Shown here in pieces: positions 1 to 5,371 of a DNA stretch of 5,371 nucleotides; position 1 is the first letter of the stretch; every line of letters begins with the position of its first letter. This stretch comes from a virus (taxonomy: Duplodnaviria; Heunggongvirae; Uroviricota; Caudoviricetes). Below the pieces are notes generated by a model that was given only the letters and a program-made list of their open reading frames with translations, made no database searches and had not been told where the DNA came from. The stretch covers positions 1-5,371 of the IMG/VR virus record IMGVR_UViG_2667527717_000007, one strand, 5' to 3'. The position numbers and the translations under genes are program-made.

Positions 1-1
1 G

Positions 2-322
2 TTTACCGCCTGGCAGACCGCTGGCGCACCGTCTAAAGAAAGCTGGGCATTCACTGCGTTAGGTGTTCTCGGCAACGATGACANNCCTGAAGCATGGTTT
101 TTCAGTGATGTCAGCGGGTTATCTGAGAGTCATGCAGTACATTTACCAGAAAGTAATGGTTCAGACTTTCTCCCGCTTAGCGATGAAGAGATCAGACTGC
201 TAACTGTCTTCAGGAAATTTCCTTCTGTAGAGAGTAAAAACATGCTGTTAGCGTTTGAGATGAGACTTCAGGAGATAAAAGAATACTATTCCAAATACGC
301 TAATCCCAATAAAAACCGATAG
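2..322 (+). CDS. 3' portion of a gene entering from upstream (106 sense codons, stop TAG 320-322); hypothetical protein, possibly the C-terminal part of a prophage regulator
   Basis: Frame 2 is open from the window edge to TAG at 320-322; the other + frames hit stops within about 60 nt. Codon usage looks E. coli-like. The tail ...LSDEEIRLLTVFRKFPSVESKNMLLAFEMRLQEIKEYY resembles C-terminal tails I associate with some XRE-family regulators, from memory only. NN at 84-85 gives one unknown residue. Confidence 0.5.
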   Translation, partial: FTAWQTAGAPSKESWAFTALGVLGNDDXPEAWFFSDVSGLSESHAVHLPESNGSDFLPLSDEEIRLLTVFRKFPSVESKNMLLAFEMRLQEIKEYYSKYANPNKNR

Positions 323-348
323 TCTCCTTCTTTCCTCCCCCAACAATC

Positions 349-375
349 ACAAGCCTGCTTGAAATGCAGGCTTGT
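349..375 (+). other. Stem-loop with 10-bp stem (acaagcctgc / gcaggcttgt) and 7-nt loop, 27 nt after the stop of the upstream gene; no U-tract
   Basis: Direct base pairing of 349-358 with 366-375. Shares the GCCTGC...GCAGGC stem with hairpins at 1721-1734 and 2087-2104. No T-run follows, so it is not a canonical intrinsic terminator. Confidence 0.5.
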
Positions 376-386
376 TACACCTCGCA

Positions 387-401
387 TAATAAAACACTTA
401 A
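387..401 (+). repeat. Direct repeat copy 1: TAATAAAACACTTAA (exact 15-mer, second copy at 666-680; degenerate copy TAAACACTTGTATTTAT at 441-457)
   Basis: Exact 15-nt identity between 387-401 and 666-680, extending with a 2-nt gap into TTCAT. Both lie in an AT-rich context. Confidence 0.7.
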
Positions 402-558
402 ATTTCATACAATTAAAAATTTTTAGTGATTTTCTCACTTTAAACACTTGTATTTATCAAATCCATTTTGTAGATTGATTGTACAAATCCTCTAGCAACA
501 CATGCGCGACAGGTAAACGTTCCGCCGACGGGCGTAAAACAAAGATGAGGACGACAGA

Positions 559-747
559 GTGGACAAGACTGAACTGAAACACATTATCGCCCTGCTCCTG
601 GAAGATGCAAAACGTCTTCAGCAGGTTGAACCAAATGCAGGCACTGAGGCCCGCATATGGTTGGCTAATAAAACACTTAATTCATTCAGAGAGTTAAGCG
701 GTTTTGCAAGAGGGTCAGGTATCTCTACCGAACACCAACTTTCTTAG
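559..747 (+). CDS. Small hypothetical protein (62 aa), GTG start
   Basis: ORF from the six-frame track. GAGG at 547-550 sits 8 nt upstream of GTG 559. Codon usage is reasonable. It has no recognisable motif, contains a copy of the 15-bp repeat, and its last 23 nt overlap the convergent ORF 725..913. Coding status is uncertain. Confidence 0.35.
   Translation: MDKTELKHIIALLLEDAKRLQQVEPNAGTEARIWLANKTLNSFRELSGFARGSGISTEHQLS
666..680 (+). repeat. Direct repeat copy 2: TAATAAAACACTTAA, lying inside putative ORF 559..747
   Basis: Exact 15-mer match to 387-401. Confidence 0.7.
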
Positions 748-913
748 CTAGCGCCTCCATAATAATAGAATGTCGTTCGCTAAGAATGCCGATTGCCGCC
801 CCGCAAAGTGCACACTGAACGAAGTGAATAATGTGACTGCAATTTTTCACTGAGGAATTGGTTTTTAACTCAAAAGAAGTTGATGGGCATTTTGGACAGG
901 TTGTTACAGCCAT
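725..913 (-). CDS. Small C4 zinc-ribbon protein (62 aa), hypothetical
   Basis: ATG at 913-911 is preceded on the - strand by GGAGGG with a 6-nt spacer (+ strand cctcc at 922-926). The protein MAVTTCPKCPS...CSHIIHFVQCALCG carries a CxxC...CxxC spacing typical of a zinc ribbon. Its 3' end overlaps ORF 559..747 convergently. Confidence 0.5.
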   Translation of the reverse strand: MAVTTCPKCPSTSFELKTNSSVKNCSHIIHFVQCALCGAAIGILSERHSIIMEALAKKVGVR

Positions 914-946
914 ATTTTACCCTCCACGGGGTCGATGTTGGTGGAG

Positions 947-969
947 TTCCCGACGGACGAGGTCGGGAA
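947..969. other. Inverted repeat ttcccgac-N7-gtcgggaa (8-bp arms) in the 5' leader of the minus-strand ORF
   Basis: 947-954 is the reverse complement of 962-969. It lies about 34 nt upstream of the ATG at 913 in minus-strand sense. Confidence 0.4.
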
Positions 970-998
970 TGTGCGCCGGACACAGGTATAAATCCGGC

Positions 999-1013
999 AT
1001 ACGAAATTCGTAT
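999..1013. promoter_or_regulatory. Perfect 15-bp palindrome ATACGAA-A-TTCGTAT; candidate operator for a dimeric DNA-binding protein
   Basis: Arms 999-1005 and 1007-1013 are exact reverse complements. It sits in the divergent gap between the minus-strand ORF start (913) and the + strand operon (1391). Confidence 0.35.
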
Positions 1014-1047
1014 CACATGCAGGATATGTATTTAAACACGAGCACAT

Positions 1048-1122
1048 AACCGAAAACGCACTACGCAGAACCTTCCTTGTCGGGTCTGTCGTTAAATTTA
1101 CTGCGATAGTGCGTTTCCGGTT
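1048..1122. repeat. Long imperfect inverted repeat: arms 1048-1068 (aaccgaaaacgcactacgcag) and 1101-1122 (ctgcgatagtgcgtttccggtt), separated by 32 bp
   Basis: The reverse complement of arm 2 is aaccggaaacgcactatcgcag, which aligns to arm 1 with one mismatch and one 1-nt gap. It could be an operator pair or a structured RNA; the sequence alone cannot distinguish them. Confidence 0.55.
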
Positions 1123-1159
1123 ATGAGTGAAAATCATAACAGTGCTGTGTGTAGTCTTT

Positions 1160-1206
1160 GACGGTATCCGTTAACAAAGTTTTCCTGGCTGATACCGTCC
1201 TTTTTC
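1160..1206 (+). terminator. Terminator-like element: 9-bp stem gacggtatc / gataccgtc with a 22-nt loop, followed by CTTTTTC
   Basis: 1160-1168 pairs with 1191-1199 and a T5 run follows at 1201-1205. The loop is larger than in typical intrinsic terminators. It lies about 185 nt upstream of ORF 1391..1681, so it could be a leader attenuator. Confidence 0.35.
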
Positions 1207-1390
1207 AGAATGAATTTTATAGTGTGGTGAATGCGGCTCAGCGCACGTGACACAGTTAAAAACATGTCAGTCCTTCATCTGTTGATGGGTGGGAATGTTC
1301 GTCGGCAGTAATGGTTAGCTGTTTACTGTCACCGGGAGGCACCCGGCACCACACTCCAAAATTCATTGTGTTACCAGAATGGAGACAACT

Positions 1391-1681
1391 ATGCCAGTTA
1401 CACCTGAAATAAAACAAAACTCAGACTGGATGCGGCGCAACAAATCTGAACAAACCGCCCCTGCCTGTAAGCCTGGTATTATTCAGAAAATATTAAGTAC
1501 GCTGAACCAGAAAGGTGACCCCACCCTTATTCCTTGCGCTTATTGTGGCAAAGCCATCAACAAAAGTGAAATCGTGGAGCATGAACTTATTTATATAAAC
1601 GGAAGTCAGCTCGCAAGAAAAACGAATCTATATTGCAGTAAACGATGTGCCGAATATGACCAGATGGCACATGAATCTTAA
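1391..1681 (+). CDS. Small zinc-ribbon protein (96 aa), hypothetical early-left operon gene
   Basis: GGAG at 1381-1384 sits 6 nt before ATG 1391, which I prefer to the track start at 1379 (no SD). The protein has CAYCGK...x28...CSKRC, a CxxC-N28-CxxxC pattern. Stop TAA 1679-1681 is followed immediately by TAG. Its position matches the small genes that precede recE in Rac-like prophages. Confidence 0.65.
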   Translation: MPVTPEIKQNSDWMRRNKSEQTAPACKPGIIQKILSTLNQKGDPTLIPCAYCGKAINKSEIVEHELIYINGSQLARKTNLYCSKRCAEYDQMAHES

Positions 1682-1720
1682 TAGCTGAAAGTTTAACACT
1701 GCATTAACCCTGAAACTATG

Positions 1721-1734
1721 CCTGCAATGGCAGG
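1721..1734 (+). other. Short hairpin CCTGC-aatg-GCAGG in the gap between the two small genes
   Basis: 5-bp stem with a 4-nt loop. Shares the stem sequence of the hairpins at 349-375 and 2087-2104. Confidence 0.4.
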
Positions 1735-1764
1735 ATATCACTCACCCTGAAAAGAGAATATAAA

Positions 1765-2097
1765 ATGAGAAAGACACCGAGCGAATCAGTAATTAATGAA
1801 CTCAACAAACGAGCAAAGGAAATTCTTGAACTGTGTGAGAAAAACGATATTCCGGTTGTTTTTTGTTACTCATTCGAATTAAGCCGGAATGAAAATGGAT
1901 ATTTAAACAACAAATCCATTACAGCTTATATCAATAAAGAGAAAGGAGCATGGGATTCAACAATAGCCGCAGCCAGCATGATCCTGCGGATGAAAGAGGT
2001 TCCTGAGATAGCTATCCATGCAATGGCTGAAATGGCTGCGATTTGTGACATCACACGGACTGCATCCGGTACTTCAGATGAAAAAAGCCTGCACTAA
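1765..2097 (+). CDS. Hypothetical protein (110 aa) immediately upstream of recE-like gene
   Basis: ATG 1765 with a weak purine-rich SD (aaagaga, 1751-1757). Stop TAA 2095-2097. Co-directional and closely spaced with its neighbours. It occupies the position of racC in Rac, but I do not claim homology. Confidence 0.6.
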   Translation: MRKTPSESVINELNKRAKEILELCEKNDIPVVFCYSFELSRNENGYLNNKSITAYINKEKGAWDSTIAAASMILRMKEVPEIAIHAMAEMAAICDITRTASGTSDEKSLH

Positions 2098-2116
2098 GGC
2101 AGGCATTTTCCCGGTT
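2087..2116 (+). terminator. Possible intrinsic terminator or processing hairpin: GCCTGC-actaag-GCAGGC followed by ATTTTCCCGGTTTTT
   Basis: 6-bp GC-rich stem (2087-2092 / 2099-2104). The stop codon of the upstream ORF lies in the loop. The T-rich tract 2106-2119 is interrupted by CCCGG. recE starts 118 nt downstream, so any termination is probably partial. Confidence 0.35.
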
Positions 2117-2233
2117 TTTACATCCCGGCGATGCTGAGGTGGGCGACCAAACCCACCGACAGAGACATGACCAATGAGCACCAGAGGTGATCACCGATCG
2201 CCTCATTCTAAACAGAAGTGAGGTTAAAAAACA

Positions 2234-5200
2234 ATGAGTGATAAGAAAGAAGATTTCGCGCTGTACTGCCCTGTTAAAAATGAAGAGGCCAGGAAACGAC
2301 TTGGAATAAAAGCAGGCTTTTTCTGGGCAACTGCAAAAAAATTATCTGTGGCTGTTTCCCGCTGTATTGCTGCTATGGACGATAAGGGGTATGACGAGGA
2401 TGACTTTAAAAAACCTGTTCGCGTCAATTACCCCGTCGTTAACGACCTGCCTCCTGAAGGCGTGTTTGATACTGAATTCTGCAACCGTTACGAAAAAGGC
2501 GGTCAGGGTGGTATCACAATGGTACTTATCCCCGGCGCTGTTCCCGCCGATCCAATGCACGGCGAAGTCGGCAGGGATATTACTGGCAGCGGCAACGCAG
2601 ACGCAGACGCAGACGCAGGCACAGACGCAGATAATGCTACGGACAATACCGAAAGTACGCTCCTCCCCGCTTACGCTTATAACGTCAACGGCGAACTGAT
2701 GTCGGAAGTGGAAAAGGAAATGTCGCAGCCTGTTTCAGGACTAAGTCTGCCACTTCGTTTCCTGGCGCAATTTAATAACGACTGTCCACAACATCAGGTC
2801 ACACCAGAGCGTTTACGGGAGTTAAACCTTACAGAGCAGGATCCCGACAGTCGTACCGGAACTATTTTACTCGCCATCCAGAACAGAAAGGAACAGCTCG
2901 AAAAACTGGACACAAAAAACCTGCATCCTTTGGCGACGTACATTGAAAAAGTATTTCCCTGCGGAAAACGACCACAACTCAATGATGTCATTAATTTTAT
3001 CGATGCCGTACTTAATACAGACTATGTCGATCGCGGACTGCTCGTTAAGGAATGGTGCGAAGGTCGTCGAGCCGCGTGCGTAGAGCATGTAACAGCACCA
3101 GAAACCAGGCGTGATAATACTGTGTCAGCGCAGACGGAAACGAAGACTACTGTCACTGAACGTCCGCGTCGTAGCGAAAAAACAACGCACCGGACGATTA
3201 ATTATGAAATTGGCTGTGGCTTATATGACGGCGAGCTGGATCTTCATAACCTGAGGGAACCGCTGGATTTTGCGAAACGCATTATGGCGAAAGACCGGGA
3301 AGACTGGAAAGTATGGTCAGACACAATCAACTGCATCCCTGGCATCCTGAATTATGACCGCCAGACCATTATCGAGATGGTACGAAAAGCCCCCACCCCG
3401 ACTTATCACAGTGCTGCACTGCGCCGCGAGTGGTGTGATTCTTATCTGCGAGCCTGGGGACGGCTCGATCCCGACTGGAGCCAGAGCGCCGCTGTCAAAA
3501 CAGCAGAGTCACATGAAGATGTCTGTGCTGATATCAGGAAGGCCGGAAAGCGCCTGCGTGAAATTGAATCAGGAGTTGGGATCAATGAAGAAAAACAGAC
3601 GACACAGGGAGAACTGGCAGATGAACCGTCAGCGCCTGAATCAGTGGAACCGGCTTCAGCTGAACATCAGCAGAATACGCAGCCGCTGGATGCTGAGGCA
3701 TCTGTAAACACCACTAAAACGGAATTCGATGTATTTGCTCTAATGCAGAACTCATCTGTTTATGGCAGCAAAAACACACAGGAGACGACCAGCAATGTGC
3801 AGGTTCAGGACGCTGAAAAGGATGAAAAACAGGCTGGTACTGAAGTTCAGTCAGGCGAAAGCAGTCTGGGAACTGGTGAAGAGTCAGATACCAGACAGCA
3901 AGCCGATGTAAACCAGAATACGGATTCTGTCGCCCAAAATAGCGATTCTGTAAACCAAACTGAACCAGTTTTGGCACAAACCGAGCCAGAAGTGCAATCT
4001 GACGAACCGGCTGTTGTTTACCCCGCTTACTTCGAACCAGGCCGCTATGAGGGTCTGCCGAACGAGGTTTATCACGCAGCCAACGGTATCAGCTCGACAA
4101 TGGTAAAAGATGCGCGGGTGAGCCTGATGTACTTCAATGCGCGCCACGTAGAGAAAACCATTATCAAAGAACGCTCTCCTGTACTGGATATCGGTAACCT
4201 GGTGCATGCACTGGCGTTGCAGCCAGATCAACTCGATGAAGAATTCAGCATTGAACCCGTAATTCCGGAAGGTGCATTTACCACCACGGCAACGATCCGC
4301 GCGTTTATTGATGAGCACAACGCCAGCCTGACAGCGATGCTGTCAGCCGACGACATCAAAGCACTGTTAGAAGAGTACAACGCCACCCTTCCTGCTCAGG
4401 TTCAGTTAGGTGGTTCCGTGGAGGAAACTGGCCAGAGCTATATGTCGCTGCCAGAAGAGTTCCAGCGTCTCGAAGCGGACAAGAAGCAGACCGCAGCGGC
4501 AATGAAAGCCTGCATCAAGGAATACAACACCACACTGCCTGCACAAGTGAAAATCAGCGGTAGCCGTGATGCGTTACTCGAGCAGTTAGCAATCATCAAT
4601 CCTGACCTGGTGGCGCAGGAAGCGCAGAAGCCCGCGCAGTTGAAAGTGTCCGGCACCAAAGCGGATCTGATTCAGGCCGTGAAGTCTGTTAATCCTGATG
4701 CCATCTTCGCCGACGAACTGCTGGATGCGTGGCGCGAAAATACGCAAGGGAAAGTGCTGGTCACCCGCCAGCAACTGAGCACTGCACTGAGCATTCAGAA
4801 AGCCCTGCTCGAGCACCCTACAGCGGGCAAGCTACTGACACACCCGAGCCGCGCCGTTGAGGTGAGCTACTTCGGTTTTGACGACGAAACCGGTCTGGAA
4901 GTCCGCGTTCGTCCCGACCTTGAGATCGATCTTGACGGGGTGCGCATCGGCGCCGACCTGAAAACCATCAGCATGTGGAACATTAAACAGGAAGGTCTGC
5001 GCGCCAAACTGCACCGCGAAATCATCGACCGTGACTACCACCTGAGTGCTGCCATGTATTGCGAGACCGCAGCGCTTGACCAGTTCTTCTGGATTTTCGT
5101 CAACAAAGACGAGAACTACCACTGGATCGCCATCATCGAGGCATCCGCCGAACTTCTGGAACTGGGCATGCTGGAGTACCGCAAGGCAATGCGCGCCATC

Positions 5201-5296
5201 GCTACCGGCTTTGACACTGGCGAGTGGCCAGCGCCGATCACCTCCGGTAACTCCGATGAAATAGCCGACTACACCGACGAACTGAACGATTTCGAC
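2234..5296 (+). CDS. recE: Exodeoxyribonuclease VIII (RecE family; PD-(D/E)XK / DUF3799-type nuclease domain at C-terminus); 3' end truncated by an artefactual junction
   Basis: Single long ORF with GAGG at 2220-2223 and ATG 2234. Stretches I recognise from E. coli Rac RecE: FPVVNDLP-like NYPVVNDLPPEG, LPLRFLAQ, DYVDRGLLVKEW, NTQPLDAEASVN. The C-terminal domain carries nuclease motifs: YHAANGISSTMVKD, LDIGNLVHALAL, RVRPDLEID, GADLKT (D-x-K), DYHLSAAMY. An acidic, Q/T-rich low-complexity linker spans roughly aa 470-590. No stop codon is reached before the sequence turns into rRNA at 5297. Confidence 0.85.
2597..2630 (+). repeat. In-frame imperfect hexanucleotide tandem repeat (GCAGAC)n, about 5.7 units, encoding ADADADAGTDAD within recE
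   Basis: gcagac gcagac gcagac gcaggc acagac gcag, read directly. The unit length of 6 keeps the reading frame under slippage. Confidence 0.8.
4295..4710 (+). repeat. Degenerate internal repeats inside the recE nuclease-domain region (three copies of an [IM][RK]A-x-[IL]-x-E-[HY]-N-x-[ST]-L motif, and duplicated LPAQV-x-[IL]-SGS / KVSGTKADLIQAV modules)
   Basis: DNA-level similarity between 4373-4418 and 4520-4564 (about 67% identity, 147-bp period). Protein motifs: IRAFIDEHNASL, IKALLEEYNATL, MKACIKEYNTTL, and ISGSRDALLEQLAIINPD vs VSGTKADLIQAVKSVNPD. Confidence 0.5.
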
Positions 5297-5371
5297 NCNT
5301 GCCATCNGANGNGCCCAGATGGGATTAGCTAGTAGGTGGGGTAACGGCTCACCTAGGCGACGATCCCTAGC
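5297..5371 (+). rRNA. Internal fragment of 16S rRNA gene (Enterobacteriaceae-type, roughly E. coli positions 215-290); most likely a chimeric or assembly artefact, not an intact rRNA gene
   Basis: tgccatcNgaNgNgcccagatgggattagctagtaggtggggtaacggctcacctaggcgacgatccctagc matches the conserved 16S segment TGCCATCGGATGTGCCCAGATGGGATTAGCTAGTAGGTGGGGTAACGGCTCACCTAGGCGACGATCCCTAGC as I recall it. It begins abruptly inside the recE reading frame, with N calls clustered at 5297-5312. Confidence 0.8.

Follow-up and report, generated by a model that had tools for sequence, protein, structure and literature searches.

The recE-16S rRNA junction at the end of an Escherichia coli prophage contig is very probably a terminal misassembly

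Results

A prophage segment lies between two foreign stubs

We analyzed a stretch of DNA of 5371 nt, here called the window. An exact look-up of its 1032-aa product, including the X residues, identified the window as the whole of contig CDRS01000150.1 from the E. coli draft assembly GCA_000939135.1; the sequence under the public accession does not differ from the window, and two samples are on record for this 5371-nt contig. Positions 86..5296 (plus strand) are an authentic segment of a Rac-like lambdoid prophage, which contains matches to DicF-like and STnc100-like RNAs, a ydaE-like ORF, an ORF of 110 aa, and codons 1 to 1021 of recE. This core is preceded by a piece from within a chromosomal E. 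coli gene for a DUF4132-domain protein (1..83, plus strand) and two ambiguous bases (84..85), and it is followed by a fragment of the 16S rRNA gene (5297..5371, plus strand). Both outer pieces are foreign to the prophage.

As a reference set for the intact prophage we used eight fetched loci (L004-L007 and L015-L018) from assemblies of other projects. Comparison of the core with one of them, L006 (GCA_037004945.1), gave 0 mismatches and one indel of a single 6-nt repeat unit, and the identity ended exactly at positions 86 and 5296. The repeat is a (GACGCA)n hexanucleotide array inside recE, at about 2590-2625, which encodes a DADADA stretch and has one unit fewer in the window than in L006. 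All eight loci carry the true continuation of the prophage at both breakpoints, with a recE of 1036-1038 aa (1034-1038 aa for RecE of this prophage as a whole) followed by recT, and downstream of recT they contain DUF977, Ead/Ea22, an integrase, and a chromosomal NA37-family gene. The gene order of the core is conserved across the other assemblies read. An exact-protein look-up with the 110-aa ORF, whose product is named as E. coli by its sources, led to 166 index blocks of public draft assemblies with the same prophage. The allele in the window had no match above 91% identity among 5,426 complete RefSeq E. coli genomes.

The kil region of the prophage contains two sub-threshold Rfam matches, which lie immediately 5' of the ydaE-like ORF and extend over its start: DicF at 1146-1200 (24.1 bits against a gathering score of 48, E value 0.053) and the sRNA STnc100 at 1199-1403 (39.5 bits against 47, E value 3.7e-6). 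The ydaE-like ORF is on record as a 96-aa version, and its 100-aa version with an ATG start is not on record.

recE is truncated at codon 1021 and runs into 16S sequence

The authentic part of recE extends over 2234..5296 (plus strand). It lies in an ORF called from 2234 to 5332, which, as the first-pass annotation had pointed out, reaches the join without a stop codon; the ORF runs straight through and ends at a TAG within the 16S sequence. Homology to recE genes of phages and of E. coli ceases at 5295/5296, and none of the DNA similarity to recE of mEp237, HK225, SPN3UB, Gifsy-1/2, and E. coli prophages goes past 5296. After ...GATTTCGAC, the intact gene continues in 8/8 fetched loci with ACACGCCGCCTTGAAGCGCTGCGTACGGCACAAGGGGAATGA, which corresponds to TRRLEALRTAQGE and a stop codon. 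The intact copies of the prophage read on past recE codon 1021 as ACACGCCGCC... into recT (350-351 aa, PF03837), the start of which is overlapped by the 3' end of recE. Since the eight intact loci carry TRRLEALRTAQGE plus stop, the window holds 1021 authentic codons of recE and lacks the last 13 codons and the stop codon. Their place is taken by a spurious C-terminal tail of 11 residues, XCHXXXPDGIS, and a false stop (5297..5332, plus strand), and nowhere in the window is there a complete recE frame with its own stop, followed by recT. The earlier suspicion that the ORF end at 5332 and the last residues are false, and that the true 3' end of recE is missing together with recT, was thus borne out by the intact copies.

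Two Pfam domains scored above their curated cut-offs in the product of the ORF, namely, PF06630 (Exonuc_VIII; residues 54-194, 41.3 bits, cut-off 25) and PF12684 (PDDEXK-like; residues 835-1001, 45.1 bits, cut-off 26). Both lie wholly inside the authentic part, and the nuclease domain (835-1001) is intact. Judged by these predicted domains, the assignment to the RecE family holds, and the gene of the window appears as a truncated and falsely extended member of it. The domain content is that of the RecE/RecT module of Rac-like and Gifsy-like lambdoid prophages, and the 3' part of recE has 81-91% DNA identity to recE of mEp237, Gifsy-1/2, and E. coli prophages. The window differs from that module in having foreign sequence instead of the last 13 codons, the stop codon, and recT. 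RecE of K-12 has 866 aa, and RecE of the window prophage, with about 1034 aa, is longer. A cluster look-up with the exact sequence of the chimeric protein, without the stop, found it absent from the collection.

The tail was compared directly with E. coli rrs, and all of its called bases (70/70) are identical to 16S rRNA positions 216-290, in the sense orientation. The first-pass annotation had put the beginning of the 16S match at about 5297, and this position is exact. Base 5296 (C) fits recE and 16S alike, and 5295 is incompatible with 16S. A BLAST search with the tail found 5297-5371 within an annotated 16S gene in 5,426 of 5,426 complete E. coli genomes. The Rfam model of the bacterial SSU rRNA (RF00177) matched 5321-5371 (35.5 bits, E value 9.6e-8, model positions 237-287); this match is not full-length, runs into the window's end, where its 3' side is truncated, and scores below the gathering score of 50 bits. 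The likeness to rrs consists of the 70 called bases and the RF00177 match, and the difference is that the window has just 75 of ~1540 nt, ending at the contig terminus, and that the fragment begins mid-molecule inside a coding gene, without promoter or leader.

The left end carries a second chimeric stub

The left end of the window, which the first-pass annotation had passed over together with its two Ns, is chimeric as well. Many complete E. coli genomes match positions 1-83 with 100% identity and no further, and in E. coli 042 this sequence sits in the middle of a gene. The NN at 84 and 85 correspond to AA in the intact prophage copies and in the sibling contig described below, and at the positions equivalent to 1-85 the intact copies carry quite different sequence. 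A spurious chimeric ORF of 106 aa, containing X, spans the join from the DUF4132 gene across the NN into the prophage (2..322, plus strand) and is annotated as a gene in the source record.

A sibling contig shares the right join and contradicts the left one

The chimeric 1032-aa product was also found on CCBS01000270.1 (11,052 nt), a contig of assembly GCA_000938175.1. The last 5,286 nt of this sibling contig equal window positions 86-5371, including the five Ns of the right join, the terminus, and the shortened hexanucleotide repeat. The left join of the window is absent from the sibling contig, which has the true prophage sequence straight through that point. Its own left end is a stub again: positions 1-64 match an internal fragment of polB, and positions 58-86 form a transition zone of 29 nt with ten Ns; its called bases agree with polB as far as position 63 and with the prophage from 65 onward. 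Between 65 and 10977 the sibling contig differs from L006 solely at seven Ns and by the same repeat-unit indel.

Because the Ns and the terminus are identical, the CDRS01 and CCBS01 assemblies are not independent witnesses of the junction. The first-pass annotation had taken the same junction in independent assemblies as a sign that would speak against an artefact; formally, CCBS01000270.1 does provide the junction a second time, but not the independence. Chance chimeric reads would not repeat themselves from one independent library to another, so shared reads or a deterministic step are indicated. Most simply, the two accessions have reads or a library in common or went through the same deterministic pipeline step.

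Ambiguous bases are confined to the contig ends

The complete list of non-ACGT bases in the window is 84, 85, 5297, 5299, 5307, 5310, and 5312, the last five of which had been noticed before and were all found at the positions given then. The chance that seven random Ns would all fall in two join zones of 16 nt is about 3e-16. Expressed as distances from the nearest terminus, the Ns lie at 84 and 85 nt at the left end of the window, at 60, 62, 65, 73, and 75 nt at the right end common to both contigs, and at 58, 61, 64, 71, 73, 76, 78, 80, 85, and 86 nt at the left end of the sibling contig. All Ns of the two contigs are therefore placed at 58-86 nt from a terminus, and the interiors (5.2 kb in the window and 10.9 kb in the sibling contig) are free of Ns. 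This confinement to the contig ends ties the Ns to the assembly product and not to a genomic feature, and the presence of the band in both contigs suggests a systematic defect of these assemblies.

Several more specific explanations of the Ns were tried, and they were either rejected or found no support. The Ns are not simple conflict codes between the recE continuation and 16S, as an N occurs at 5 of the ~13 conflict positions of the right join, and in the left zone of the sibling contig 2/10 Ns fall where polB and the prophage agree. Variation among E. coli 16S copies is not supported as their source either, since three fetched rrs variants were identical at all five positions. A fixed offset of the Ns from the join was considered as well; offsets 1, 11, 14, and 16 are common to two joins, which is not significant (hypergeometric, ~0.08).

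The junction is absent from the genome, phage, and contig collections scanned

We searched for the recE-16S join in 5,426 complete E. coli genomes and 50,697 phage records and found no place that spans it; alignments in these sets stop at or before 5296. The exact junction pattern, with N as a wildcard, was absent from contigs of species-representative genomes, viruses, and metagenomes, and in a control the pattern did match target sequence that contains Ns. The one other occurrence of the junction is the sibling contig CCBS01000270.1.

The two sides of each join in the window come from different, non-adjacent loci that meet at a sharp breakpoint, recE and rrs at the right end and the DUF4132 gene and the prophage at the left end. 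Independent genomes with the same flank lack the junction, all eight intact loci proceeding to recT instead. The breakpoints lie mid-gene on both sides, at recE codon 1021 and 16S position 216, and inside polB and the DUF4132 gene. The idea that the contig ends mark repeat boundaries common to other prophages was not supported: the recT side beyond the breakpoint had matches in just 78 of the 5,426 genomes, at 80-90% identity, the prophage region to the left of window position 86 had no match whatever (0/5,426), and neither flank is a common E. coli repeat.

Discussion

Our analysis leaves us with high confidence that the recE-16S join results from a terminal misassembly of contig ends and is a data artefact, with no biological feature behind it. 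The first-pass annotation had already judged the join to be non-biological, and the eight intact loci of the same prophage support this. During assembly or finishing of the fragmented short-read draft, a short overhang would have been added at both termini of the contig, 83 nt plus NN at the left and 75 nt at the right, taken from unrelated places of an E. coli genome. A single or very few chimeric or mis-overlapped reads may have lengthened the contig ends with sequence from other parts of the genome, over a distance shorter than a single read. The Ns would then be low-confidence consensus calls in the thinly supported stretch at the transition from the real contig to the foreign sequence. 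Gene calling then ran recE across the right join as far as a chance TAG, which gave the false protein of 1032 aa, and it produced false chimeric ORFs at both contig ends.

The join belongs to a well-known class, the chimeric contig ends of short-read drafts. As in other members of this class, the breakpoints of the window lie within genes on either side, the Ns cluster at the join, the join sits at the contig terminus without support in any other genome, and a sibling assembly contradicts one of the two joins. Unlike in usual chimeric contig ends, a second accession has the right stub of the window too, and the Ns are grouped in a band at 58-86 nt from each end. Recurrence of the stub together with the N band points to a specific pipeline step or to shared reads.

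Could the junction instead be real? Illegitimate recombination might have joined codon 1021 of the prophage recE to position 216 of rrs, and the contig would end 75 nt further on because short-read assemblers cannot cross the multi-copy 16S gene. A tail of 75-76 nt into a repeat is indeed what a de Bruijn contig with a k of about 77 would have, the same join is found in two assembly accessions, and the flanks show weak microhomology, with base 5296 shared and 7/13 bases matching around the join. We nevertheless regard a real junction as very improbable. The two contigs agree down to their Ns and terminus and are not independent, and a clonal join would show full coverage and zero Ns. Stubs of the same kind, with unrelated genes (DUF4132, polB) as their source, are found at the other three contig ends examined, and the left join of the window is directly contradicted by the sibling contig. 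Moreover, the junction is absent from the complete E. coli genomes and the contig collections scanned, and every fetched intact copy of the prophage continues into recT. A variant of this idea, in which real DNA molecules with the join existed in the culture, for example in a minority subpopulation with illegitimate recombination between prophage and rrn, could account for the Ns by capture at low depth; we give it extremely little credence.

The internal 16S piece at the right end also calls to mind a wet-lab chimera, as no bacterial target is amplified more often than the 16S rRNA gene, and the library might have been contaminated with a 16S amplicon or with DNA of another organism. The tail is identical to the 16S of E. 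coli itself, and the stubs at the other ends, from polB and the DUF4132 gene, are no amplicon targets, which together make contamination exceedingly unlikely. The limits of the fragment, 216 and 290, are not known to coincide with a standard primer site (27F, 338R/341F, 515F, 806R). Finally, foreign sequence and Ns at both ends might have been produced at a later stage than assembly, through the handling of records, concatenation of contigs, or processing in a database, which is scarcely credible, as concatenation would join whole contigs and not stubs of 75-86 nt, the graded 29-nt zone of the sibling contig with Ns on both sides of its breakpoint looks like consensus calling, and the same sequence, identical to the window, stands under the public accession.

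If terminal misassembly is the cause, as we think, the join has no biological significance, and neither of its parts, a RecE family member in a Rac-like/Gifsy-like recET module and a fragment of rrs, is novel. It matters for the use of the data. The false 1032-aa "RecE" with its XCHXXXPDGIS tail and the 106-aa ORF are already in public protein collections, and rRNA-based screens for contamination or taxonomy could be misled by 16S sequence on a prophage contig, which might also suggest phage-borne rRNA. Foreign stubs of 75-86 nt with Ns were present at 4/4 contig ends examined in the two related assemblies; hence, the terminal ~90 nt of every CDRS01 and CCBS01 contig should be distrusted or trimmed, and X-containing proteins derived from such contig ends are not to be trusted.

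Phage records under Enterococcus, Aeromonas, Acinetobacter, Listeria, and Actinobacillus also matched the window when it was used as a query. The matches to records of these five genera presumably arose via the 16S tail, so some deposited phage records may contain 16S sequence.
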